Source: Escherichia coli (GTDB taxonomy: Bacteria > Pseudomonadota > Gammaproteobacteria > Enterobacterales > Enterobacteriaceae). Taken from it: DNA of 64,000 bases. Below, piece by piece: positions 1,625 to 20,613 of this stretch (its first letter is position 1; each line of letters opens with the position of its first letter). The DNA lies in assembly GCF_011045215.1 (NCBI RefSeq), contig NZ_CP049202.1, one strand, 5' to 3'. The notes below the pieces were generated by a model. That model was not told the DNA's origin and ran no database searches. It worked only from the letters and a program-made list of their open reading frames with translations. The translations under genes and the position numbers were made by a program.

Positions 1625-4600
1625 TCAGTCTCCGCCCAGGGTTTTCTCTTTCTGCAGGTCACGAACCATATCCCGCTCCATCTGCTGCAGTCGCTCCTGC
1701 AGCAGATTTTCCCGGGCAACCTCCCGGACCGCTTCCCGCACCCGTTGTGGTTCACGCAGTACACTCTCCGGCAGCGCGGCTTCCCGTTCAGTTATGGCAG
1801 CCCGGTCACGCTCCTGCCCGGCAATCTCCCTGACAGCCTGCTCTGTTTTGCCATCCGGCAGGTCAGGTTTGTTCTCTGCCATTTTACGGACAATTTCATC
1901 TGCGCGACGTTCCGTTTCACGGCGGATGGCCTCTTCAGCCTGCCGCTGTGCCAGTACCTCTGCCGTGACCGGTTCGCCATTTCCGGCCCCCGGCTGGACG
2001 CTGTTGTCCGGAATATCTCCCCACACGCGACCACCGGTGATGGCACCGGGATTCCACGGGCGACCTTCACCGGCAATTCTCACCACCACACCGCTGTCAG
2101 GATTATCACGAGCAATCCGGACGCCATCCTGCATGTTATCAGCCAGCAGACTCTCTCCGTTACGGCTGCCCTGCAGGGCCACGAACTGCGCATCTCCGCT
2201 GCCTTTCACCCGGCCTTCACCGCTGAATCCCCGCAGCCCGTTTCCGTCATCCGTAGTCAGTGGGTTCAGCCAGATACCGGCGGACTTGCCGTTACGGTCA
2301 AAAGCCGGCAGTGCCACATACGGCTGCGGATATTTGCGCCCCGGTGCAATAAACCGTGCAGGACTGTCTCCCCCGGCAAGTCCCGCCTGACGGAGAACGG
2401 CACGCCCTGCCGCCACGTCCCGCAGTTCCCGTGCCGTACTGAACAGTCGCTCTGCATTCATGACCTCCCGGTCAGCTTTCGGCTCCAGCACATCGTGGGC
2501 AGTCCCTTTCTGTACGGCATTGTTGATGGCATCCGTCCAGCCCTGACGGTCATCAGTGTACACCTGCACATGCTGCTTCATACGCGACAGGGCAACGTAG
2601 GCTGACTCAAAGCCGGCCATCTGTTTCCGGCCACCTTCCGTGCCTTCAAGCGCGATGGCAAAGGTTTCACTCGCCCCCTGTGCACCGTGGGCAGTGATGG
2701 CATAGGCCAGGTCAATATGTTGTTCTGCCTGCTCCTGACCGGGGCGAATCACCCGGGTCTGCAGTCCGTCAGAAAGCGTGACACTGTCACCGGAAACCGC
2801 CGTCACCGTCCAGACGCTGTTGGCCACATAGCCGCGCTCCCGGTCACTCTTCGTGAAGCGCATCCGGTCACCGGTCCCCACCCGGATGGTGTCCGGGGTG
2901 TACAGTGTGACACCTTCAGCCACCGCCTCCCGGGGCGAAATCAGCCGCGTGTTACCTTCCGCATCCTGCAGGGTTATCAGCCCGTCACCCTTACTGATAC
3001 CGGCAATCCGGTGATACACATTATCCACCAGGACAAGTGCGTCCCGATGTGTCTCCCAGGTGGAGAGACGACGCAACTCCCCGTCGCGTATATTCGCTGT
3101 GTTCAGGACAGGCACCATGACCTGCTCTTTTCCCAGCTCACCGGCCTTTTCCCGTGCATCATGAATCATGCTGTTCAGTACGCGCCGGTCCTCATTCAGA
3201 TGCGTGACAATCAGCGTCTGCTCCCGTGCTTCCGGCGTCCTGCCGGTATAATCGCGGACAATGGCTTCATACAGTGTCATGGGAATATCCGGAAAAGCCT
3301 CACCTTTCAGCATCGCCTTCTGCTGCGCTTCTGCCAGTTTCGCTTCCTGGCTGTGACTGAACTCCGTCACGGAGTGCTCCGGTACCCATGCGCCCTCCTG
3401 ACGTGGCACCTGAGACGGTTTCACACTCTCAAGCCCGGACAGTGCCCTTTCCACATCCCGGTTAATCAGGCTGTATACCGCCTCCCGCAGCTCCGGCGTC
3501 TGACGCACAATCTCCTTCATGATGGCCACATCGGCAGCACTGCGCGTCTGCTGGAGACGGAAAGGCTGACCGGGCGCGATGGCCTGCAGCTGGTCCGTGT
3601 CACCACTGGCCACGGCACGACCACCACCGGCCGCAATCAGGGCGTATGCCCGTGCCATGTCGGTATTGCCCACCATTGAGCTCTCATCGAGCAGGAACAG
3701 CGTGTTGCTGAAATCCGGCGTTTCTCCGCTGCGCTGCTGCAGCTGCGTGTCATGCAGAAAGGACGCCAGTGTCTGTGCATCCACGCCAGCGCTGCGCATC
3801 TCCCCGACCGCACGGTGCGTGGGCCCCAGCCCCACGACACGGGGACGCTCACTCTCCGGCAGCATGTTCACGGCTGACATCACCGCCCGGAACTGTGTGG
3901 TCTTACCCACACCGGCATAACCCTGCACCACCGTGAAGCGGTCAGAGGTTTCCAGTATCATGCGGGTGGCGGCACGTTGCCCCGACGTCAGTTTCTCCAT
4001 AAGTTCGCCAGGTACTCTCTCCATCAGCGGCGTGACAGCCTCCTTACCTTCGAGAATATGGCGAATAATGCTTTTTTCAGCCTCATATGACGCACGGGAA
4101 ACCAGCAGGTCTGTGCCATAACCTTTTGCCACATCCACATGCAGTAAATCACCGCGTTTTATCTGTGCATCGATTTCCCGCCCCAGGTCAGCAAAACTGG
4201 TTCCTTCTGCAGCAAACGACTTTGCCTCTGTCAGCAGGTCCACATGGCTGAAGGCCAGGTTTTTACTTTCCACCACCGGAAGGGCCAGATGAATGGCCTG
4301 CTGTGCCGGCGTGTGAAGTGCGGACTTCTGATGACTGATAGCGGTTTCCAGCGATGTCTCACCGGCCCGCGCCTTTATCTGCTCAGAAACCACCGTAAAG
4401 GAGGGATGGCGGGCAAGTTTTTCCGCAGTACGGGTTTCATCCAGTGAGGAATACAGCCGGACATCACGACCGCTGCGGGCCAGACCGTTCAGGGTGGCGT
4501 TGTCCATTGCCATCTGTGTGACGGAGGCAAAAACCTTCGCACTGTCGCTGACGGAATGCCCGGGCGTTTCCACCCAGCCGTTCTCCAGCTTCAGTGCCGT

Positions 4601-6895
4601 GAACGGTGAATCAGCCACAGGCAGGGTGGCCGGTTCAGCCCGCCCCGGCACAACAACCGTCATCGCATCTTCACTGACGGATGCCACCTGCAGGCGGTCA
4701 CCGCCGGAGACGCGGAGTCCGGGGATTTGTCCCGTCACCCTCAGACGCTCGCCGTCTGCCACCGGCATTTTTTCCGGCCGGAACAGCGACCAGCTGCTGT
4801 CCAGAGAAGAAATACGCACCACCTGCGTTTCACCCTGCGCATCCCGCAGGGTCAGGCTGTGACTCTGCGCCGTCACCCGGTCTATCACATAGCGGTCATG
4901 ACTGCGTGTCTCCGGGTTCCACTGCTCCATCACCATCCCCGGGCGGTACATATCCCGCAGATAACGGCTCCGGCTGTCCAGCCAGACCGGTGACAGGGCG
5001 GTCATGGTTACTTCCGGGTGTCCGAGCACGCCCTGTGTTTTCAGCTCACTGCGAATGGCCTGTGTCAGTATGGCCTGTTCCCGTACCCCGCTGACCTGTG
5101 CCACGCTCTCTTCTCCGGCTTTCACGCTGGCCGCAAAATCTCCTGCCAGCCGGGCATAGCGGACATTACGGTCCGGTTCACTGATGATGGTGGCCGGTCG
5201 CTGTTCTCCCCCCAGCCAGCGATATGTGTTCACCCCGGCATCCTTCATGGCCATCAGCGCACTGCCTGTACCGGTTCGCTGCCCGCTGTCGGTTATCAGG
5301 ACCTGTACGTTATGACGTGCGGCACCGTCCAGCAGGGTTAACGTCTCTTTCAGGGAGAGTTTTTCGCCCTGGTCAACGATAACAGTACTGCCCGGCGTGA
5401 AGGCCATGCCTTCCAGCAACTGACGACGTCCGGTTATCAGCTCACCGGACAGCCGTTCATCCTGCTTCAGGTTCATCTGCGAGCGACGGTCAGCAGCGAT
5501 AATCTGCACTTCCCGCCCCTGCTCCCGGGCCATCATGACCAGTTCAGCCACCCGCTCACGCTGCCCGGCTGCACCGCCCTGCCCGGACACAATGGCCAGC
5601 GACGGACGGTCCTGTGCCAGAACACTGACCGCATCGCTGTAACCAGCCGTCCGGGGGACACTTTTCTCCGGATGTACGGTCACCCGGTTCTGTTTCATGA
5701 TGTCACGACTGAGTGCCCGGACGGACAGCTCATCGAGCACATGAATTCCTGATGTGAACAGCCCCTTCTCACGGTCGAGGGGGATGAGTTGCTCACGACT
5801 GATGGCCTCATCGATACCGGCGCGTGCCCGTTCAATCACACCATTTTCCGGCGGCAGTATACCGACCGTTCTGGCCAGCACGTCCGTATACGTGAACTGC
5901 ACTTTTCGTTCACTTAATCCGGCAATGGCCTGTGTCACCGCCTGCTGCACATCCGGCCCCTCCAGTGAAACAGCCCCGGGCGCCTGCGTGCGGGTCTCTG
6001 CCCGTTGCTCCGCCGCGTCACGATACGCCCGGATATCGAACCCGGTTTCCTTCAGTGTCTGCATCCACTCGGTCATTTTGATTTCAGGATCGACGTGCTG
6101 TTTGGATTTTCGCGTATCCAGTGCTGCCACATCCCGGGATTTCAGCGAGGCGTCTTCCCCGACGGCCTCCCTGATAGCCTGCGAACGACTGGAAAAGGCC
6201 TCCACCGGTACGCCCGGCATCTCCCACATCCCGTGCTTACCGACCACTTCGGTTTCATAGCCCAGCGCCTCAACCTGCTCTTTCAGCTTTTCCCGGTAGA
6301 GTCTGCCAAAGGCAATCTGATTAGCGTACACATTCTCAATGAACCCTGTTTTTCCCACTTTGTCACTGCTCAGTGTCTTCCACTCGCCGTTATGCTGTGT
6401 AACATTGGCCACCACCGCATGCGTGTGTAACTGTGGTTCCTGATCGCGACTGGTGTCGTGATTAAAAAGCGCCATCACCAGATTACCGGTCAGCACCGTT
6501 TCTGACTGTCCGTCCGTCATAACCCGTGTGGAGGCCAGCGCCTCCACCTGACGGACAGCAAAATCCACGGCCTGGTTATGTGCATCAATAAGACGTTTAT
6601 CACCGCCTAACATGGCCATCACGGAGACACTTTTGGGGGCGGAGAAGGTCAGGTCGTAGCCGGGACGATGCTTATTACTGCCATCCTGCATGCGGCTTAA
6701 ATCCGCTCCGTCCGGCAGCCTGCCCTCCAGAAGACGGGTAAAAACATCCTTATCGACACTGCCCTGCAGCCCCAGCTGTTCAGCCCCCCTGCCGGCCCAG
6801 CGTTCTCCCATGCTGCCCAGCACATAGTAATTATCCTTGTCGGTATAATAGTTACCGGCACTTCCGGCCGATCTGACCTGCGCGATACTCATCAT
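1625..6895 (-). CDS. traI: TraI relaxase/DNA helicase I, 1756 aa
   Basis: N-terminus [24 protein letters not shown], histidine triad region QLHTHAVVAN, P-loop GYAGVGKTT. Same length as F TraI. Confidence 0.97.
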   Translation of the reverse strand: MMSIAQVRSAGSAGNYYTDKDNYYVLGSMGERWAGRGAEQLGLQGSVDKDVFTRLLEGRLPDGADLSRMQDGSNKHRPGYDLTFSAPKSVSVMAMLGGDKRLIDAHNQAVDFAVRQVEALASTRVMTDGQSETVLTGNLVMALFNHDTSRDQEPQLHTHAVVANVTQHNGEWKTLSSDKVGKTGFIENVYANQIAFGRLYREKLKEQVEALGYETEVVGKHGMWEMPGVPVEAFSSRSQAIREAVGEDASLKSRDVAALDTRKSKQHVDPEIKMTEWMQTLKETGFDIRAYRDAAEQRAETRTQAPGAVSLEGPDVQQAVTQAIAGLSERKVQFTYTDVLARTVGILPPENGVIERARAGIDEAISREQLIPLDREKGLFTSGIHVLDELSVRALSRDIMKQNRVTVHPEKSVPRTAGYSDAVSVLAQDRPSLAIVSGQGGAAGQRERVAELVMMAREQGREVQIIAADRRSQMNLKQDERLSGELITGRRQLLEGMAFTPGSTVIVDQGEKLSLKETLTLLDGAARHNVQVLITDSGQRTGTGSALMAMKDAGVNTYRWLGGEQRPATIISEPDRNVRYARLAGDFAASVKAGEESVAQVSGVREQAILTQAIRSELKTQGVLGHPEVTMTALSPVWLDSRSRYLRDMYRPGMVMEQWNPETRSHDRYVIDRVTAQSHSLTLRDAQGETQVVRISSLDSSWSLFRPEKMPVADGERLRVTGQIPGLRVSGGDRLQVASVSEDAMTVVVPGRAEPATLPVADSPFTALKLENGWVETPGHSVSDSAKVFASVTQMAMDNATLNGLARSGRDVRLYSSLDETRTAEKLARHPSFTVVSEQIKARAGETSLETAISHQKSALHTPAQQAIHLALPVVESKNLAFSHVDLLTEAKSFAAEGTSFADLGREIDAQIKRGDLLHVDVAKGYGTDLLVSRASYEAEKSIIRHILEGKEAVTPLMERVPGELMEKLTSGQRAATRMILETSDRFTVVQGYAGVGKTTQFRAVMSAVNMLPESERPRVVGLGPTHRAVGEMRSAGVDAQTLASFLHDTQLQQRSGETPDFSNTLFLLDESSMVGNTDMARAYALIAAGGGRAVASGDTDQLQAIAPGQPFRLQQTRSAADVAIMKEIVRQTPELREAVYSLINRDVERALSGLESVKPSQVPRQEGAWVPEHSVTEFSHSQEAKLAEAQQKAMLKGEAFPDIPMTLYEAIVRDYTGRTPEAREQTLIVTHLNEDRRVLNSMIHDAREKAGELGKEQVMVPVLNTANIRDGELRRLSTWETHRDALVLVDNVYHRIAGISKGDGLITLQDAEGNTRLISPREAVAEGVTLYTPDTIRVGTGDRMRFTKSDRERGYVANSVWTVTAVSGDSVTLSDGLQTRVIRPGQEQAEQHIDLAYAITAHGAQGASETFAIALEGTEGGRKQMAGFESAYVALSRMKQHVQVYTDDRQGWTDAINNAVQKGTAHDVLEPKADREVMNAERLFSTARELRDVAAGRAVLRQAGLAGGDSPARFIAPGRKYPQPYVALPAFDRNGKSAGIWLNPLTTDDGNGLRGFSGEGRVKGSGDAQFVALQGSRNGESLLADNMQDGVRIARDNPDSGVVVRIAGEGRPWNPGAITGGRVWGDIPDNSVQPGAGNGEPVTAEVLAQRQAEEAIRRETERRADEIVRKMAENKPDLPDGKTEQAVREIAGQERDRAAITEREAALPESVLREPQRVREAVREVARENLLQERLQQMERDMVRDLQKEKTLGGD

Positions 6896-9048
6896 CAGAA
6901 ATCATCTCCCGGCTCAACATCCTCCCCGCGCTCCCGGTGCACATTAATGTTCACCTCTTCACGACGCTGCATCTGCTGCTGGATGTCCGGATGATTTTCC
7001 TGTTGCCATGCCTCATAAGCGGCCATATCCACTACTTCACCGGATTCACTGATCCCGGGTGGCAGTTGCTGTTCCATCTCTTCTTCCGGTTTCATTTTCA
7101 GCTCCTGCTCGATCCCCCCTGCCGGAACATTCACACCTGCATCTGACTTCTTATCATTGATGACAGAAGACACTGGCTGTTGTGGCTGTTCAGCCTGAAC
7201 CACGTCTTCTCCGGAAACAACCTCCGGGACATCCGGTTCGAAGAGGCTGGCCATCTGGCGACCTTCTGCTTCTCTTGCGGCAAGCACGGCACTCAGGCGA
7301 TTCTCCATTTCCGGATTGATTTCACGCGGAATAAACTCCGGAGCAACCTTCGGACGTTCCTGATATTTCAGTGAGAGTTTTACTGCCGGATACGGTCCGG
7401 GCAGGGTGACATAACAGGTCAGATCCGGCAGAGACTGAATGTCGGAATAACTGACCAGCGTCTGGCGCTCCATATCCTTACCGGTCGATACCCCGTCACG
7501 CACGGGATCAGCACCGTAGGAATACTGCTCGCTGGCTTTCAGGTGCTCTTTCTCACCAATTTCACCGGCAGCGAACTCTGCAATCTTATGGCTGGGAGAA
7601 CGGAAAAAGGCACGGGTGTTCATGACGTCAAACAGCGTGGCAGCCGCTTTCTCACCGTAGATATCTTCCAGCTGGGCATAGGACTGGATACCAAATACAT
7701 AGCAGCCACCAAACTTACGGGCTTCCGGCAGGATCTCCACCAGGTCCGGCAGTTTGTGTAACGTGGGTAACTCATCACAGAAAAACCACACACGACGGCT
7801 ACGGTTTTCTCCCATTGCCAGCAGACCACGAATGGCAATGGACAGCCACATGGAGATCACCGGCTTCAGGGAGGCATGGGTGTCGGCGTTCGACGAGATA
7901 AACAGCCAGCCGTTTTTCTGATCTTCCCGGACACCACGCATCCAGTCACGGATGGTGAAGGGCTCACCGTTATGCTCAATCCCCTGCAGGTAACGGATGG
8001 CTTTCACGTAGTTGGTCAGCACAGCACGGATGGAAATCGCCGTTTTCTCGATTTTCTCTTCCACCAGGTTGGCCGCCGGTGAATTACGCAGGAAGGTACG
8101 CAGTTTTTCGATTTTGATGGAAAGCAGTGTGTCCACCAGTTTGCTGTAACTGCGGTTGGGGTCATTACGCATCAGGTACGCCGCTTCCGCAAAAATGGTA
8201 CGTCCTGAACCCTGCCAGAACGGGTCCTCTTTTGTGCCCATCGGGATCAGCGTGTTCGCGGTATTATCAAAATCCGGCTGTGTCAGGCACTCCTTCCACA
8301 AATCCCAGGCGGCACAGCGGGCATCCAGCGGATTCAGGATTTTATCGATGGAGGGATCATAGTAACTTTTAACAAATTCCCCTGAACGGTCATAAATCAC
8401 CACCATATCTCCACGCTGACGGGCGTAGTTGGCCAGACGACGGATAACTTCCGACTTACCGGCCCCGACCGTGCCGTGCAGACAGAAGTTCTGGATTTCG
8501 GAATCCCGGATAATCGGCAGGTCGCCAATCCGTATATCGGAGTCCTTGCCGTCTTTTTTCAGCATCCGGGCAACGTCTTTCGGGTTCTCCGTCAGCTGAC
8601 GACCACCTGTGACTTCATTTTCGCTCTGTTGTTTACCCTGACGCCCCAGAATCCAGGAGACAACAAAGAAGGTAATCAGGCAAATAACCAGTGCCACAAC
8701 TGTGGCCAGAACGAATGCGGACCATAGCTGCTCTCCGCACCAGATCATATATTTATCATGCAGTACCTGAGCAGCATTCATCCGGAAGGTTTTGCCGTAA
8801 TACTGGATCTCATATACCGGCTGGGACCTGATTAAATCCCGCATGCCTTCCAGCGTGGTACACCACCAGTAAATACAGCCGTTCACAAACGTCTGCCAGC
8901 TTATTTTTACCCATAAAACCAGACCAACGAGTATCCAGAAAAAAATAAACAGGCAGTAAAGCATGATATTGGCGATCTGGCTGAACATGCGGATACGCAT
9001 GGACGCAATCTGACCGCCCTGGGTCATATCCTTTGCGTTAAAACTCAT
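6895..9048 (-). CDS. traD: TraD type IV coupling protein, 717 aa
   Basis: Two N-terminal TM segments, Walker A GTVGAGKS, acidic Q/E-rich C-terminal tail. Its stop overlaps the traI start (TGATG). Confidence 0.95.
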
Positions 9049-9098
9049 GATGAAACTCCGGGAAAATCTGGAACAGAGCAGAAAAGGATGATGTGGGA

Positions 9099-9836
9099 TT
9101 AATTCACAGAAACAGACCAGGTGTACCCTGTATGCCGGTGGTGATAACCGCCTGCAGTCCTGCCGGAAGAGACCTTCTTTGTAACAATGTCAGTCAGGCG
9201 CAATACTTCAGACCAGTCACTCCCATGCGGAAACTGGATCTGAATAAAAAGGCGTACCCGTTCACGATGATCCAGAACTGTGTCCGGTTCATAAAGCAGA
9301 CCACTATCAGGAGAAACACGGGACGTTTTATTGATGAGTTCGTATTTATCGGCATGAGACAGTGATGAAAGCGCCCAGGTAATATTTTCGCCCTGATGAC
9401 CATCAATACGACTGTTCCCCGGCGTCCAGGCAATTTCCTGCGCATTCGCCACGATGATCTGTCTCGATACTTCTGCCAGCTTTTTTGAAGTACAGAATAC
9501 CGGTGCCAGCACACACAGGGACAAAAAATTGCAGCTGACCGCTTCCGGTTTAACCGGACTGCTCCCGGATTTTTCAGGAAAAGATATTTTTGTCAGTATT
9601 TCAGTTAATTCCTTATGCCTGAGAGAGTTAATAAAGTGCATGACAAGCATCATGAGAAACAATATAACAATAAGCCCTCCGATAACCACTAAAAGGTCAG
9701 TATCAATATTATTGTTGTACAGATAGTCTTTAGTGGTCGCTGTATTATCCTGTATCACCGGGGGGTATTCAGTTACAGGCTTCTCAGTAAATTGATTATT
9801 CTCACCAACATATTCAGCGATATTGTCTGATGTCAT
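9099..9836 (-). CDS. Hypothetical single-pass membrane protein, 245 aa, cargo between traT and traD
   Basis: ATG at 9836 preceded by GGAGAAAG. One strong TM helix ([22 protein letters not shown]). No recognisable motif. Locally AT-rich. Confidence 0.6.
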
Positions 9837-10038
9837 AATGACTTTCTCCGGAAGCTTCCGGCTTCGCCGGCAACACTTCACGGTCGCACAAAGAATTTGC
9901 ACAACCGCTCAGTGTTTTCATATTTATTTCGGAAACGCCGGGGAGAAATAAAATTTATTTTATTTCTTTCCGGGGTTGGACAACGAGCAAAGCGAGGCGT
10001 CAGTCAGGAGGCCGGTCAGACCAGCCTCCTGAAGATAA

Positions 10039-10770
10039 TCAGAGAATATTTGCGATTGATTTGGCCAGCTGGTCTTCGAGAACAGGCTTCGCCTCTTCAA
10101 ATTTCAGGTTAACCTTGTTCGCACTGGAGACCACACGGGTCTGGTATTTATGCTGGTTACCTGTTTCAGTACTGGTCTGAATTTTCGCACCTGATGTGCC
10201 CTGACGCAGGGCGGCAACATTATCCGTTGTCACCGTTGCCTTAGTACGCTCTGCAATCTGCACATCCGTGATCATGGTATAGTTCACATCTTCCACCATC
10301 GCATCTGCAGCCATACCCACCAGACCGGCAGCAAGGCCCACACCGAGTGTGGCACCGGCAGAACTGGAATTATATCCGGTGATACCGGCACCTAACGCTG
10401 CACCAACTGCTGCGCCTTCATAACCACGGTTCAGCCATCCCTGAGACTCCCGCAGATCCATCTTATCGGCCTTCAGCACATTCGCCTGAATCCAGTAGTA
10501 GGCTTTATCCGGAGAAGTCACCACCTGATATCCTTTTGCTTTCACAGCATCAGCAATTTTGCCCTGCAGCCCACTCATGTCTTTATCAGACGTGTTTTTG
10601 ATCTGCAGAAATACCGTGCGTTCGCTGGCGGGTTCAAGCCAGATGGTCTCACTCATCTGAGTCTTCACCTCAAGGTTACGCTTCTTGATTGCTGTGCTCA
10701 TCGCACCACACCCTGAAAGGGCCAGAGTGGAACTGACCAGTGCAACCATCATTAGTTTTTTTGTTTTCAT
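10039..10770 (-). CDS. traT: TraT surface-exclusion/serum-resistance lipoprotein
   Basis: 243 aa, lipobox LALSGC. Sequence matches TraT as recalled. Confidence 0.95.
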
Positions 10771-10783
10771 CCAAAATATCCTT

Positions 10784-11293
10784 TTAACTAACAGATTCTT
10801 TTTTGAACAGACCTATTACTGAGACTATTGCAGAGAGATTATAACGATTTATATCTATAGTATAAATAAAGGAAAAAATTACAAACAGAGTTATCGATAA
10901 AAAACCAAATAAGAACGTATGGGCGAAGGAAACTATTGAAAAAACAATCACAAACAACAAGATATAAGTTTTGTTCTTATCATACATAAAAGATATAACT
11001 TTCGACTCATCTCTGAATTTTTTAGGGATAGCAAGATACAACATCATTCCATTAGTAATGGCAACAAAAAGGATAAACCCCATTACGCCACTAAAACATA
11101 TATCAAATCCGGCATCTCGGATATCAACTTTATCTGCCAGCAAACGGAGAAATGTCGGCCATAATAAAATCCATAAAAATACATACCCCCCTGGCTTTAT
11201 GACTTGTAATAATGGCGGAATATTAACACCCTCTACAGAGAGTACATCCTTTAGTTTCTGTGTCTCCGTTTTTATATCATAGTGAGTAATCAT
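10784..11293 (-). CDS. traS: TraS entry-exclusion inner-membrane protein
   Basis: 169-aa hydrophobic AT-rich ORF between traG and traT. Its start overlaps the traG stop. Confidence 0.7.
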
Positions 11294-14136
11294 AATGGTC
11301 CCTTCAGTTGATTCTTTTTCTCATCAATCATTTTTTTCACAGTCTCTTCTGATGGCTCAGGTATTATCTTTTGACTTTCTCGCTCTTCATTATATTTATT
11401 ATTCTGAGATAATGCTTCTGTTTTATGGTGATTTTGTAGTTCAGAATACTGTTTTCTTACAATATTTTCCTCGCCTCGGATGCTGTTCTGAGTATCTCCG
11501 ATATTACCTCGATATTCTGTGACCATATTATCAACCTGATGTTTTACATCATCACGGATATTACTGTCCTGCGTTCTTTGATCAATAATGGCCTGATGCC
11601 CCTGATGGTCAGCAATAATATCCTGGCTGCCACCACCCGAAGGTACGCTCTCCATTCCTTTACCAATATCGCCACGGGATTCACGCCAGGCATTATCAAC
11701 ACCAGGCTGTATCTGTTCCTGCACAAAAGACCAGGCCATCGCCCGACGGCGTTCTGCAATCTCCGGCGAACTGGTATTTGTCAGAATAGCTTCGGCATCC
11801 TGCGGTGCGTGTTTCATCACATACTGTGCAAACTGTTGCGACAAATCTTCACTCATCTGCCCACTCATGCTTTCAGTACGGGATGCCATTTCAGCATATT
11901 CATGGCTGCGGGTCATATTCGTCGTGTACTGGTCGTAACTCTGTTTCGCTGAGTTCAGGGCTGCAGACAGCTGGTCCACACGGGAATCGGCATTATTGTC
12001 AGTATGGCTGCCGGACTCACTGACTTTGCGACTGGTAAAGTAATCGCTGGCCTCTTTAAAGTCCTTACTGGCTTTAGCATCGATATCATGTCGAGCATCA
12101 TGGGTAGCCCTGCTGCCACTACTTGCAGAATGTGAATCATCATCCGTTCGATCAAGACTTCCCTTAAATCCGCCTCTGACACCAACTCCACCACCAACCC
12201 CAAGAATTTTAGGTTTAATCCCCCATTCAGCATGAGCATCTGCATATCCGCCATACGAGAACTTAGAACCTGTTGATGCCAGTTCCTGAGTCGCCTGCTC
12301 ATTACTGATATTATGCGCTTTCGCATAGCTTTCCACTGCACTGCGCATACGGCTGGCCATCATGGAGTCCTGTGCGCTCATCGTGCTGTCAGCGCCACCG
12401 GTGACAGAATCACTGCTCCCCCGGTTAGAACCAAACTGACTGAGCGTATTCCAGGCACTGGCAATACTGCTGCTGAACCCATGCAGGGCGCTTTCTGCTC
12501 TGTTCGATGCCTCCCGGGCCATTTCCTGTTGTGCCGCCGCAATCTGACGCGTTGCATTGATACCGACCGGTAAACGGGACATCGCTCCGCTTGCATCCAT
12601 AACCATATTACCGTCACGGGTCTGTGTGGCGGTTGCGCCACTGCCGGTCTGGTACATCATCTGACCAAACGACGTGGTGCTGTTGGTGCTCCAGCTGAAG
12701 CCGTTCACGTTTTCCGTCTGCATGTTGCCGTAGGAGTAATTACCGTCAACCACACTGCCTGCTGCACTGGCCGTCGGACTGATAGATGAAGAGGCGAAGT
12801 GGCTGTACACACTGGAAAAACCTGCGCCAAGGCCTTTTACCATCATCCATGACAACGGGGGTATCATGACAGATATATATCCGGCAGTGGACGCCAGGTC
12901 GGAGTATTTCAGCTGTATCTGAGAGAGTTCAGAGAGCACGACCGGTGCACCATTCTGCTTTGCATAGAATGTCATGGCACTGTTCAGAATGGCATACAGC
13001 AACGGCCAGGTCTGGAACCACATCAGGGCAAACACATAGCCCTTCAGTACAGACAGCGTTAACCTGTTGAAGACCGCCGCCAGTACCAGGAGCGGGAAGA
13101 TACCAATGGTAATGCCCACCAGAATGGTCTGCACCATCGGCAGGTTTCGCATCAGCACATGACCAATGGAGACATGTGCCAGACGCTGTTTCTCCATCGA
13201 CGAGGTCGTGGCCAGACTGACCAGGCTGGCGGTATCACCGTTACGGGCTGCATTACTGGTGATACCCTCTTTCAGGGCATTCATGGTGACGTTCTGGCGC
13301 ATAATATGGCTGGCAGACTGGCTGGAGCCGTAGAAATAACTGTAACTGTCACTCACCAGTTGCCTGAATAACAGGTCCGGGTCCGGTCTGCCGCCAAATA
13401 TCTGCTGGACATAATAATGCCAGGTCTTGCCTCCGGTATTCGTATCAAAATTCAGCTTATCCTTCAGTCCGACGGATGCGTCCTTACAGGACACAAACGG
13501 CTCTGAACTGTGCAGAAAACTGTAATTATTATTCGGCACCTGACGTAAAGGGCTGGGCTGAGAAAAGATTATGGTGTACGGGTCAGAGGAGGCCATCAGG
13601 TCTTCCAGCGTGTATTTGTGATTCAGGTAAATATCACCCAGCACGCAGTTCTGGACGTAGTCCTGAAACAGATTGATGATTTCCGGATTCCGGGACAGAA
13701 AATCGGTGCTTTTCACAATCAGGTTCGCCCCGAACAGCATGCCTGTCTTGCTGTAGGTGGCGCTGTCAGGCTGAGCGAACACCATCTCATAGCCGGCCAC
13801 CATTGCATGCCCGATACGGGTCGTCAGTGAAAGTGGCATCGCCAGTCCGACCGGCACATTATCCACCCGATGGACTTTGACCAGGTCACTGTTATCAATA
13901 ATCTGCACCGACGTGCGGACATTAACCAGCAGGCTGATAAGCACAAACACGGCCACCCAGCCCAGCAAATCCATCACGTTGTGCCGCTGTACCCATATCA
14001 CGGCCACCGCGAGAACAGACAATGTGAGCGCAATTTTTTCAATGGAATCCCACGTCCTGGTTCCCATAAAGGCGGCAATGGCGTTCAGGTTATTCCGCAA
14101 CCATTCACCACCGGCAATCACATAAACTTCATTCAC
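11290..14136 (-). CDS. traG: TraG (pilus assembly / mating-pair stabilisation), 948 aa
   Basis: Large ORF with an N-terminal polytopic membrane region. Positioned between traH and traS as in F. Confidence 0.9.
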   Translation of the reverse strand: MNEVYVIAGGEWLRNNLNAIAAFMGTRTWDSIEKIALTLSVLAVAVIWVQRHNVMDLLGWVAVFVLISLLVNVRTSVQIIDNSDLVKVHRVDNVPVGLAMPLSLTTRIGHAMVAGYEMVFAQPDSATYSKTGMLFGANLIVKSTDFLSRNPEIINLFQDYVQNCVLGDIYLNHKYTLEDLMASSDPYTIIFSQPSPLRQVPNNNYSFLHSSEPFVSCKDASVGLKDKLNFDTNTGGKTWHYYVQQIFGGRPDPDLLFRQLVSDSYSYFYGSSQSASHIMRQNVTMNALKEGITSNAARNGDTASLVSLATTSSMEKQRLAHVSIGHVLMRNLPMVQTILVGITIGIFPLLVLAAVFNRLTLSVLKGYVFALMWFQTWPLLYAILNSAMTFYAKQNGAPVVLSELSQIQLKYSDLASTAGYISVMIPPLSWMMVKGLGAGFSSVYSHFASSSISPTASAAGSVVDGNYSYGNMQTENVNGFSWSTNSTTSFGQMMYQTGSGATATQTRDGNMVMDASGAMSRLPVGINATRQIAAAQQEMAREASNRAESALHGFSSSIASAWNTLSQFGSNRGSSDSVTGGADSTMSAQDSMMASRMRSAVESYAKAHNISNEQATQELASTGSKFSYGGYADAHAEWGIKPKILGVGGGVGVRGGFKGSLDRTDDDSHSASSGSRATHDARHDIDAKASKDFKEASDYFTSRKVSESGSHTDNNADSRVDQLSAALNSAKQSYDQYTTNMTRSHEYAEMASRTESMSGQMSEDLSQQFAQYVMKHAPQDAEAILTNTSSPEIAERRRAMAWSFVQEQIQPGVDNAWRESRGDIGKGMESVPSGGGSQDIIADHQGHQAIIDQRTQDSNIRDDVKHQVDNMVTEYRGNIGDTQNSIRGEENIVRKQYSELQNHHKTEALSQNNKYNEERESQKIIPEPSEETVKKMIDEKKNQLKGPL

Positions 14137-18738: not shown

Positions 18739-20613
18739 TTACAGTCCTGCCTGTTTCAGCTGGTCAGCAATCTGCTCTTTCACTTTCTGCGTCAGAACAC
18801 CACTGTCCGGGATTTTCTGGTTATTCATCAGGTCTTCGTAGAAGTTAGTGAAATCCAGTCTGTCGAACTGAATTTTCTGCAGCTCATCAACCGTAATCCC
18901 CCGACAGTCAGGATGCTTCGCACTGCCAAAACTGATACGCAACTGACCGTTGCGCCCCTGCTGCTGGACTATCTGCGCCAGCTTCGAATCAAACTGACAG
19001 TAGCTGCGTTTTTTCTCCAGACAGACGCCCAGCACTTTCTTCGAACAGAACTCCCCGACGCTGACGGTCAGTTTGTTTGATTTTTCTTTAGCCAGGGCTT
19101 TTTCATCACTGCTGCATTTGGCCAGCCCGATATCCTGTCCCCAGCCGCTGTCCTTACAGCAGTTGCTGTATCCGGCTGCTGCCTTCTTACAAAATTTCGC
19201 CTGACCGGTGAAAGCACGGACATCCACCCCGTTCAGCGCCGCAATATCCTTACCTGCAGCGGCCAGTGCCGCCAGCTGAGAAACAGCTTCGGCAAAATCA
19301 TTACTCTGCCCGCTCTGAGCCTTATCGCATTCGCCATCGAGACAGAAGACGTCTCCCCCACAGAGCATCACTTTCCCGGATGTTTTTGACTCACAGGAGT
19401 ACGTGGCATATTCATGCAGACAGGCACCTTCTTCGGAGTAAAAGGCGCACTGGTGTGACACCAGGGTACAGGCTGGATTGTCGGTGTAGGTCTGACAGGT
19501 TCCCTTGTCTGCTGACTGTGTGACATACGTGTCCCGGTATGCCCAGCAGCTCTGGTACATGCTGTATGACTGACCGTCTTTCACCAGCGTCCTGTTCCCG
19601 CCAGCCTCCGTACATTCTGTTTTTGTCAGTTTCCCCAGCTCCTTGCTGAACGGGCAGCTTTCAGACCAGACAACATACGGGGTGTACGAGGCTTTTTTTA
19701 CCCTGACAACCAGACGCAGCTTCATTGCCGTATGACGTTTGAATTTTGTATTCCCGACCCGGACGGGGTGAGATGACGTAAAAGCCACACCGGCAGTCAG
19801 TGTTTTCTGTACTGGTGTAAATGAGGCATCTGCTGAGTATTTGGCATTCCAGCTCAGTGGGGTTCCCAGTACTGTAATTGTCATAGGTACACTCTTCTGC
19901 AGGTAAGTACGACTCCAGCTGTAATGCGCATCGACAATTTCACCGGTAACGGGAGAGGTAATGGAGACAACATACTGACCATTCACTTCACGTGCAGGTA
20001 GCTGACTCATTTCATACTCCAGCGTCCGGGTTTCCCATGTGGTACTCCCCTGCAGCTCCATACGGGCAGTTCGTGTGCAGTACTGCTCCACCTGTAAATC
20101 CCTCTCACAGGTATAATTCGTGTATTCACTCCGGCTAATCTCCTGCGCACTGCACTGCTGCCCGGTGTTTCCCACAATGCTGTCAGCCCGGTTCACCACA
20201 TCCCTGTCGGTCTGGATAAACGGTGCATCCGGTGAAAGAATGTCTTTCGGCTTGTTCATGAATGACTCTGTGATGGTTTTTCCGGTTTCACCGGTCGCCC
20301 ATTCCGTGGTGCCGTCATTTTTCAGGCCGCCATCCCCGCCGGCAGTCACGCCACCGTAATATTTTGTCTCGTCCGGATTCGCGTTATAGCCGGGGATACT
20401 CTCCTGTGGCTTAAAGCCCTGAATACTGCTGCTTCCCTGTCCTTTGATCTGGTGAGCAAAATCAGAGCCGGCCCGGTAATCACTGTTGCTGTCAGCAAAC
20501 ACAGAAAAGCTCAGGAAAAAAACAATTGCACAAAGATTGCACGGCTTTACGGAATAATTAAAATTCAGAGATCTGAAAAAGGTATTTATCTTTTCTTTCA
20601 TAACCTGAACCAT
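18739..20613 (-). CDS. traN: TraN outer-membrane mating-pair stabilisation protein, F-type mature region
   Basis: From DSNSDYRAGSDFAHQIKGQG onward it is Cys-rich and matches F TraN as recalled. The start is ambiguous (20613 or 20601). The signal peptide differs from the one I recall for F. Confidence 0.9.
   Translation of the reverse strand: MVQVMKEKINTFFRSLNFNYSVKPCNLCAIVFFLSFSVFADSNSDYRAGSDFAHQIKGQGSSSIQGFKPQESIPGYNANPDETKYYGGVTAGGDGGLKNDGTTEWATGETGKTITESFMNKPKDILSPDAPFIQTDRDVVNRADSIVGNTGQQCSAQEISRSEYTNYTCERDLQVEQYCTRTARMELQGSTTWETRTLEYEMSQLPAREVNGQYVVSITSPVTGEIVDAHYSWSRTYLQKSVPMTITVLGTPLSWNAKYSADASFTPVQKTLTAGVAFTSSHPVRVGNTKFKRHTAMKLRLVVRVKKASYTPYVVWSESCPFSKELGKLTKTECTEAGGNRTLVKDGQSYSMYQSCWAYRDTYVTQSADKGTCQTYTDNPACTLVSHQCAFYSEEGACLHEYATYSCESKTSGKVMLCGGDVFCLDGECDKAQSGQSNDFAEAVSQLAALAAAGKDIAALNGVDVRAFTGQAKFCKKAAAGYSNCCKDSGWGQDIGLAKCSSDEKALAKEKSNKLTVSVGEFCSKKVLGVCLEKKRSYCQFDSKLAQIVQQQGRNGQLRISFGSAKHPDCRGITVDELQKIQFDRLDFTNFYEDLMNNQKIPDSGVLTQKVKEQIADQLKQAGL

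Follow-up and report, generated by a model that had tools for sequence, protein, structure and literature searches.

What is the gene that lies between traT and traD in an F-like transfer operon, was it inserted there, and at which side of the cell envelope could its product act? These questions are raised by a stretch of 64,000 nucleotides of Escherichia coli DNA (contig NZ_CP049202.1, assembly GCF_011045215.1; hereafter called the window), whose minus strand contains the distal end of such an operon. An earlier inspection of the letters alone (the sequence-only reading) had described at this place an orphan single-pass membrane protein, inserted between traT and traD, with a palindromic element of its own and, as a suggestion, an envelope-acting function. 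The analysis reported here indicates that the open reading frame (ORF) at 9099–9836 is very probably the R100-type allele of yhfA, an accessory gene of F-like transfer operons which codes for a bitopic inner-membrane protein. The best overall explanation would be an uncharacterised R100-type accessory gene with a bitopic product acting on the donor side; we assign to it a probability of roughly 0.35.

Identity and coding status

A tblastn search against R100-1 (NZ_OQ683449.1) showed 90.6% identity over residues 1–245 to a protein annotated as WP_000199905.1, encoded between traT and traD. The ORF of R100 was called YhfA in the paper on pEntH10407, where no similar ORF was seen in F (PMC2762410); the copy on pMccB17 was listed as hypothetical "gene_27" (PMC10912980), and the sole other mention in the literature is a linkage signal between variations of traC and yhfA in plasmids of sequence type ST131 (PMC13600687). 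No functional study of yhfA was found in the literature, either by name or by position. The gene is therefore not new, being on record already as the R100 hypothetical "yhfA", and every copy is without an assigned function.

The coding sequence of the window allele (9099–9836, minus strand; from ORF listing and translation) consists of 245 codons and a stop. The reading frame and its start at ATG 9836 had been proposed from the letters, together with a Shine-Dalgarno sequence, and both were confirmed by the translation and by the motif GGAG at 9846–9849 (minus strand), as read from the sequence, which is situated 9 nt 5' of the ATG and inside the gene-specific segment (see below). This start is preferred over an upstream GTG at 9902, since the homologs of all clades open at the equivalent Met.

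Selection was estimated from ratios of nonsynonymous to synonymous substitutions (dN/dS), using ten further alleles for which DNA was at hand. Pairwise values for yhfA ranged from 0.13 to 0.5, with dS up to more than 1. The pooled value over 8 alleles was 0.25 in the annotated frame; of the five others, four gave 1.10–1.66, and the antisense one which shares third codon positions gave 0.34, a known and expected artefact. By segment, the ratio was 0.16 for residues 101–155, 0.21 for the C-terminal domain (C-domain) and 0.49 for the linker (residues 71–100), the highest in the gene. The ORF 9099–9836 is a genuine protein-coding gene under purifying selection. Two antisense ORFs (9093–9365 and 9454–9726, plus strand) were considered and rejected, as they showed no constraint beyond the third-position artefact.

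Family and distribution

With megablast, the interval matched 4,033 plasmids of PLSDB, 1,770 of which hold at least 80% of it, and the gene was always annotated "hypothetical protein". With tblastn, the R100-type protein was detected in 1,933 plasmids, with at least 80% of the protein covered in 1,795. The closest copy was that of pRHB07-C12_2 (98.8% amino-acid and 99.6% DNA identity). Among the loci fetched for comparison (L numbers, with coordinates of their own), the yhfA region of L005 has no annotated coding sequence in the PLSDB gene table, which omits pseudogenes.

The designation as an orphan was borne out, since 1.84 billion cluster representatives, searched exhaustively with a profile, yielded only fragments of the YhfA family itself, and a second search with a profile that included a divergent clade again gave only this family. 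Both searches missed the clade of pKpQIL, which was found by position and confirmed by hhalign. The absence of a recognisable motif was likewise confirmed: a Pfam scan at E values up to 1 gave a spurious SpoIIM match over the transmembrane (TM) helix and nothing else, including no match to the profiles of TraS (PF10624) and TraT (PF05818); NCBIfam as well as PADLOC-DB and PHROGs (E up to 1) were without a match, and a sequence search of the PDB returned no usable one. No homolog with a known tra function emerged from the family and profile searches.

A weak match (protein cluster P0139) led to an E. marmotae-type clade, represented by WP_000235175.1 (P0140; 230 aa), which was found in E. coli, E. 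marmotae and E. albertii, on ca. 55 F-like plasmids in all. The representative has ca. 28% identity to YhfA overall and 33% in the C-domain; its gene also comes after traT, and architecture and motifs are kept. It is followed by a gene for a 122-aa DUF2726 protein (PF10881, E = 2e-25), sometimes by vapBC, and then by traD (L018:6650-7660 and L019:6686-7054 for the DUF2726 gene 3' of the yhfA-like gene; in L018 an inverted vapBC also precedes traD). In pKpQIL the same place is occupied by a gene for a 229-aa hypothetical protein, WP_004198206.1, which was aligned to the family profile by hhalign with a probability of 96.6% (E = 7e-10; 149 columns, i.e., the whole C-domain; ca. 20% identity); unrelated occupants of the slot, used as negative controls, remained below 1%. 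This clade was found on 2,284 plasmids, 2,188 of them from Klebsiella, and 1,632 of the 2,284 matches cover at least 80% of the protein. The total is about 4,200 sequenced plasmids, with ca. 1,930 of R100 type, ca. 2,280 of pKpQIL type and ca. 55 of E. marmotae type. Sixteen residues are invariant across four clades, namely P112, P139, G140, R143, D145, W154, R173, P176, G179, P184, Q201, L214, G229, G230, G237 and Y238.

The neighbour gene of the E. marmotae-type plasmids, and an SRIDG motif recalling ExDG, suggested a DUF2726/PD-(D/E)XK nuclease. This candidate was rejected: PF10881 matched the neighbouring 122-aa gene and neither YhfA nor the E. marmotae homolog, and the predicted fold, beta-alpha-beta-beta twice, would differ from the nuclease core and so argue against such a reading.

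Contigs with traT and traD of Enterobacteriaceae type (TraT 83–99% identity) were also seen in metagenome-assembled genomes (MAGs) labelled as Lachnospiraceae, Geobacteraceae and Dysgonomonas (L024, L031, L032), and L024 contains in addition an R100-type yhfA; the placements of all three in these MAGs are most likely binning errors.

The traT-traD interval as a variable slot

From the traT stop (10039) to the traD start (9048) there are 990 bp, in agreement with the earlier estimate. The interval had also been called richer in A+T than the flanking genes; with a G+C content of 0.453 this holds in comparison with traD (0.524) and traT (0.505), although nearby traS is far lower still (0.324).

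By alignment, the DNA specific to yhfA-bearing plasmids extends over 9069–9855 (minus strand) and comprises the ribosome-binding site, the ORF and about 30 nt. It is replaced by about 50 bp (F/pSFO157 type) or about 190 bp (pSLT type) of unrelated sequence in plasmids which keep the first 183 bp after traT and the last ca. 20 bp before traD; in the plasmid search, the partial matches extended over query positions 1–183 and no further. F, pSFO157 and pSLT are thus without yhfA, and plasmids of these types are classed as conjugative; since, in addition, truncated alleles are frequent, yhfA would appear to be dispensable for DNA transfer. That the gene is accessory and absent from many F-like plasmids was borne out by the plasmid search, and we conclude firmly that yhfA is a dispensable accessory gene.

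In every traT-bearing locus that was fetched (L001, L002, L007, L008, L011, L014–L016, L023), yhfA is located between traT and traD; in L009 and L020, where traT is replaced, and in L013, where it is absent, yhfA still lies directly upstream of traD. A survey of F-like plasmids across species, with one genome per species, provided 26 loci with traT followed by traD. The slot contained yhfA in 1 of the 26, a gap of 49–295 bp without an ORF in 14, a longer gap without a forward ORF in 2, and unrelated genes in 9. The notion of a gene ancestral to all F-like plasmids was rejected on these figures. The proposed insertion did not hold up either, because homologs of 20–33% identity fill the same slot in diverged F-like lineages. 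The traT-traD junction is a variable accessory slot, occupied by lineage with the yhfA family, with nothing, or with unrelated genes; the YhfA family is a long-standing occupant in Escherichia- and Klebsiella-centred lineages, and yhfA is neither a recent insertion nor universal.

Several other occupants were noted. In Pantoea, Rahnella and Ewingella, the slot contains one or two small multi-TM proteins (99–155 aa) unrelated to YhfA (L080, L090, L091, L093, L097, L098, L102, L103; about 4740–5800). One Pantoea plasmid has a repeat-rich, adhesin-like ORF of 677 aa (L091:5508-7541), and Klebsiella pneumoniae ATCC 13883 a lipoprotein-like ORF of 203 aa (L025:4804-5415). An extra ORF of 86 aa (WP_040090733.1, no Pfam match) was found between traT and yhfA (L015:3573-3833, L005:2240-2500). 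In two loci (L009:2572-3825, L020:4263-5516), traS-traT is replaced by an opposite-strand gene for a "heavy metal-binding domain" protein (ca. 103 aa) and a gene for a 262-aa hypothetical protein without a match to the Pfam profile of TraT; in these loci the spacer is still present from window position 10003 on, as are yhfA and traD. A similar opposite-strand ORF of 102 aa replaces traS in L008 (2661-2969), with traT kept. A vapBC pair was present on the opposite strand between traD and traI (L003:4969-5183, L006:5046-5180, L020:8644-9269), and since it occurs there in several F-like plasmids, the traD-traI junction is a second cargo site in the operon.

Evolution and disruption of alleles

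When the same plasmid pairs were compared, YhfA showed dN of 0.03–0.10 and dN/dS of 0.2–0.3, TraT dN/dS of 0.02–0.11 with one outlier at 0.24, and TraD 0.07–0.11; amino-acid change in YhfA was about 3–20 times faster than in TraT or TraD. Between the window and L020, TraD is 99% identical (dS 0.05) and YhfA 82% identical (dS 0.38). In L007 and L008, no similarity to the window is seen at the DNA level over the N-terminal ca. 100 codons, and the C-domain and traD are 89–95% identical; as these two match only from the C-domain on, the breakpoint is at the domain boundary. The alleles of yhfA recombine independently of traD.

Truncated copies are frequent; one cluster of 921 members starts at Met65, and two protein clusters share a foreign C-terminal peptide, AYYREGDR, which resembles the junctions of insertion elements (truncated or foreign-ended clusters: P0021, P0048, P0064). 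Break points are frequent in yhfA and at the place where it joins traD. An IS66-family element was observed inside yhfA in one plasmid (L004:2501-3005), and an IS21-family element between yhfA and traD in another (L002:4507-6809).

Architecture, topology and fold of the protein

Four segments were distinguished. An acidic N-terminal tail, predicted to be periplasmic, comprises codons 1–47 (9696–9836, minus strand; K+R = 2, D+E = 9); in all clades it is 42–47 aa long with 1–3 K+R and 6–9 D+E, and its low AlphaFold confidence is consistent with disorder. It is followed by a single TM helix, codons 48–70 (9627–9695, minus strand), with the top 19-residue window at 48–66 (mean Kyte-Doolittle value 3.2), the sole strongly hydrophobic segment. 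A basic juxtamembrane stretch and a poorly constrained linker extend over codons 71–98 (9543–9626, minus strand), with 3 K/R in 15 aa; 2–4 K/R are found in the 15 residues after the helix in all clades. The rest, codons 99–245 (9102–9542, minus strand), would form a conserved alpha+beta domain of 147 aa according to AlphaFold2, predicted to be cytoplasmic. Of the architecture suggested by the sequence-only reading, the single TM helix and the C-domain are retained, and the N-terminal tail of about 65 aa is shortened to 47 aa on the basis of hydropathy.

There is neither a cleavable signal peptide nor a lipobox at the N-terminus of YhfA. Since the tail is acidic and the flank after the helix basic in every clade, the positive-inside rule predicts N-out/C-in, and thus a periplasmic tail and a cytoplasmic C-domain are probable. 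An envelope-acting role, as proposed earlier, is therefore not favoured, the rule placing the folded domain of every clade in the cytoplasm.

The full-length AlphaFold model, built with 13 close homologs, reached a mean predicted local distance difference test (pLDDT) of 42, with helix 46–85 as the only confident element, and was not used for fold searches. For the C-domain alone, with an alignment that included the divergent clade, the best AlphaFold2 model had a pLDDT of 86.4 and a predicted template modelling score (pTM) of 0.85. Its topology would be beta-alpha-beta-beta, a short helix, and beta-alpha-beta-beta, i.e., an alpha/beta sandwich, in which the moderately hydrophobic residues 99–117 form a core beta-strand and not a second TM helix. 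A fold search with this model, which had been proposed with the first description, gave no significant or informative match; the best structural matches were a small subdomain of the polyketide acyltransferase 4amn, the EF-Ts core, AdoMetDC, the GGDEF/Cas10 palm and ACT. An internal duplication of the C-domain was considered and rejected, as BLASTP gave no alignment between the halves. The R100-type C-domain contains three cysteines, at whose positions the E. marmotae and pKpQIL clades have other residues.

The traT-distal spacer

The perfect 11-bp inverted repeat at 9944–9967, reported from the letters, is indeed present and forms the core of a longer, A+T-rich hairpin or palindrome (9934–9977, minus strand) with 21-nt arms (9934–9954 and 9957–9977) of 86% complementarity. 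When the interval was simulated 2000 times with a first-order Markov model, a perfect 11-nt repeat with a loop of at most 10 nt occurred in 3 cases. The repeat of the window had been taken for the gene's own element and a possible sign of independent regulation, an interpretation which has to be abandoned, since the spacer in which it lies (9856–10038, minus strand) is common to plasmids without yhfA and no promoter-like site was found upstream of yhfA in a sequence scan. These 183 nt are 94–99.5% identical in more than 4,000 F-like plasmids, with or without yhfA. The gene-specific DNA begins only 19 nt before the yhfA ATG, which argues that yhfA has no promoter of its own. The palindrome thus belongs to the 3' end of traT and to the upstream region of traD, and is not a regulator of yhfA.

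The RNA of 9830–10045 folds with -87 kcal/mol (z = -8.1 versus shuffled controls) into four hairpins. Directly 3' of the traT stop is a G+C-rich hairpin (10004–10032, minus strand; 14-nt arms, 93% complementary) that is present in the minimum free energy (MFE) fold. The A+T-rich hairpin exists in two haplotypes with two double-compensatory and two stem-extending changes; the compensatory nature of these differences speaks for selection on the hairpin or palindrome as such, even if together they count as a single evolutionary event. A third hairpin (9872–9916, minus strand) was seen in MFE folds, with hairpins of similar sequence in the spacer of pKpQIL. Finally, two overlapping CCGG-rich palindromes, GCCGGCGAAGCCGG and CCGGAAGCTTCCGG, were read from the sequence at 9848–9871 (minus strand) and appeared in the folds; they straddle the junction between shared and specific DNA and touch the ribosome-binding site of yhfA. 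In pKpQIL their counterpart is GCCGCCTTCGGCGG, in which a compensatory change preserves the stem and after which a U-tract follows. A search of Rfam with the structured spacer gave only a chance match to a microRNA (E = 0.068, far below the gathering score).

As an intrinsic terminator, 9934–9977 provides a hairpin, but its stem is A+U-rich and no U-tract follows; a consensus scan detected no terminator on this strand in the interval. The pKpQIL spacer contains a canonical terminator-like hairpin with a U-tract, and the 35-fold drop of RNA after traT is documented only for a spacer of that type. A 1987 paper on traS and traT of F reportedly has "promoter and terminator activities" in its title. 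Possible roles of the spacer are those of a terminator or attenuator, of a 3' structure that stabilises the traT mRNA, or of a palindrome bound by a protein.

Between yhfA and traD there are 50 bp (9049–9098, minus strand; read from the sequence), with the ribosome-binding site of traD and without a hairpin; a consensus scan of this spacer found no terminator-like site on this strand, and a distance of about 50 bp is repeated in all R100-type loci. Because this gap is free of a hairpin, yhfA and traD are probably co-transcribed.

Expression and possible function

RNA-seq data for the pKpQIL-like plasmid pBIC1a, in reads per kilobase per million mapped reads (RPKM), were 56 for traG, 231 for traS, 282 for traT, 8 for the slot gene, 7 for traD and 10 for traI (PMC6286996). 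The slot gene is about 35-fold below traS/traT and level with traD, and on account of this RPKM value it appears to be transcribed with the repressed distal tra genes and not with the constitutive exclusion genes.

In the reading favoured here, yhfA is probably expressed as part of one unit with traD, by transcription that runs on through the hairpins distal to traT. In the donor, the membrane-tethered cytoplasmic domain of YhfA would act at the type IV secretion machinery, on its cytoplasmic side. There, YhfA might tune the coupling protein TraD, its ATPase partners, or the docking of the relaxosome; it would not be an outer-envelope exclusion or phage-resistance factor. The view of YhfA as a dispensable accessory factor of the donor, situated on the cytoplasmic side of the transfer apparatus, is tentative, and it is doubtful whether YhfA and its remote relatives represent an unrecognised component of F-like conjugation which tunes coupling protein and secretion ATPases in Escherichia and Klebsiella.

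Several points weigh against this proposal. The YhfA alleles do not track those of traD, which argues against a tight co-adaptation with TraD, and adjacency to traD is not required, since a DUF2726 gene, sometimes with vapBC, intervenes in E. marmotae-type plasmids. The topology is a prediction, and only one of the five C-domain models was of high confidence, with the others at pLDDT 59–71. The RNA-seq data stem from the remote pKpQIL clade and from a repressed plasmid, and the identity of pBIC_00031 with WP_004198206.1 was deduced from gene order and from the 99.3–99.9% identity to pKpQIL-type plasmids given in that paper. Sequence and profile searches gave no homolog of known function, and the fold search no informative match.

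The position directly after traG-traS-traT would suit another role, recipient-side immunity, in which YhfA would join TraS and TraT as a third component of exclusion and would block related plasmids or discriminate between mating partners. yhfA shares the deep allelic genealogy of this gene block (dS 0.3–0.4 versus 0.05–0.2 for traD), its N-terminal half occurs in discrete types which cannot be aligned at the DNA level, with the breakpoint at the domain boundary, and the small multi-TM proteins in the slot of other genera are reminiscent of TraS. In SXT/R391, the specificity of exclusion is determined by the cytoplasmic parts of Eex proteins, which are located in the inner membrane, a precedent with which a C-in topology would be compatible. 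Exclusion genes, however, require constitutive high expression, and the homolog in the pKpQIL clade is expressed 35-fold below traS/traT and equally to traD; the hairpins after traT part yhfA from the exclusion transcript. Moreover, no co-variation was seen between the N-terminal types of YhfA and the types of traS, R100-type YhfA being found with at least four different arrangements of traS, and there is no similarity to TraS (PF10624) or any exclusion family. F is able to exclude with TraS and TraT alone (PMC12445648). Taken together, we consider an exclusion function unlikely.

A related possibility concerns topology, and therefore overlaps with the functional ones: YhfA could be an N-in/C-out signal anchor with a periplasmic domain, acting in the envelope, e.g., in pilus assembly or mating-pair stabilisation. 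Neighbouring genes do code for products that act in the envelope, namely TraT, TraN and, with its C-terminal part, TraG, and three cysteines are conserved in the R100-type C-domain. The number of these cysteines is odd, though, other residues take their place in the E. marmotae and pKpQIL clades, the charge bias of all clades favours C-in, and a cleavable signal peptide and a lipobox are missing, so that a periplasmic location of the domain seems improbable.

Less probable still is conflict cargo, i.e., a membrane-anchored factor for phage defence, abortive infection or plasmid competition in a cargo hotspot of the tra operon. The slot and the traD-traI junction carry vapBC, DUF2726, adhesin-like and lipoprotein-like genes; yhfA is dispensable and often disrupted, with amino-acid change at about 3–20 times the rate of TraT and TraD, and a membrane anchor with a cytoplasmic sensor-like domain, which the layout of YhfA resembles, is common among abortive-infection effectors. 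Against this stand the lack of PADLOC or PHROGs matches, the very low expression of the homolog, purifying selection (dN/dS 0.2–0.3) with no sign of positive selection, and the fixation of the family at one position of F-like tra operons down to 20% identity, whereas mobile defence genes usually change their context.

It is hardly credible that the ORF is decaying or functionless and persists only because essential tra genes are linked to it: the many truncated, frameshifted or insertion-disrupted copies and the thousands of conjugative plasmids without yhfA would fit, but the constraint (dN/dS 0.25) is confined to the annotated frame, 1,795 of 1,933 R100-type and 1,632 of 2,284 pKpQIL-type matches extend over at least 80% of the protein, and even at 20% identity the architecture and the 16 invariant residues of the C-domain are preserved.

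Neighbouring genes

The genes around yhfA were assigned from the ORF listing, all on the minus strand: traG (11290–14136), traS (10784–11293), traT (10039–10770), traD (6895–9048) and traI (1625–6895). The same order is found in the annotation of the near-identical plasmid pRHB07-C12_2. The window traS (10784–11293) is very rich in A+T, with a G+C content of 0.32 versus ca. 0.50 in its neighbours, and has no DNA similarity in most of the other plasmids compared, as expected of exclusion-specificity alleles. At the expected place of traN, pRHB07-C12_2 contains an IS100 element (L021:18994-20795), and no traN is listed for it in the PLSDB gene table; the region of the window which matches the IS100 region (18739–20613) contains an uninterrupted ORF of 624 aa, which shows that the two plasmids are not the same.

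Significance and comparison with known systems

yhfA is located on IncFII and IncFIIK backbones, which, in E. coli and Klebsiella, bear a large share of the burden of clinical resistance. Mechanistic work on F-like transfer has mostly been done with F, which is without yhfA, and any contribution of the gene to transfer, exclusion or fitness would therefore have been missed. If the proposed tuning of the coupling protein should be true, an effect on transfer efficiency, recipient range or cost of IncFII/IncFIIK plasmids with extended-spectrum beta-lactamases (ESBL) or carbapenemases could be expected. For a former "hypothetical protein", the analysis provides a four-clade family, a predicted topology, a model of the C-domain and an expression context; R143, D145, R173, Q201 and the structural Gly, Pro and Trp residues are the invariant targets. 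The palindrome is reassigned to a conserved, highly structured RNA or DNA element distal to traT.

The closest known counterpart is YhfA of R100/R100-1 (WP_000199905.1), which is the same gene, with 245 aa, the same 200-bp upstream and 50-bp downstream spacers, and only allelic differences to the window protein. The homologs of pKpQIL (WP_004198206.1) and of the E. marmotae-type plasmids (WP_000235175.1) share the N-terminal tail, TM helix, linker, alpha+beta domain and the position after traT, but their identity is 19–28% overall and the cysteines are not conserved. In its repeated beta-alpha-beta-beta units, arranged as an alpha/beta sandwich, the predicted C-domain would be similar to generic two-layer alpha+beta sandwiches. 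With TraS, YhfA has in common that it is a small inner-membrane protein from the same gene block, variable between plasmids and non-essential for transfer; TraS, however, is polytopic without a soluble domain, has no sequence similarity to YhfA and is highly expressed, unlike the YhfA homolog, and the types of YhfA do not co-vary with those of traS. TrbA, TrbE, TrbH and TrbJ of F are accessory, membrane-associated products of the tra operon without a known transfer phenotype in the laboratory. YhfA is likewise accessory and embedded in tra, but it is not homologous to these proteins and differs by its larger size and its folded domain of 147 aa.

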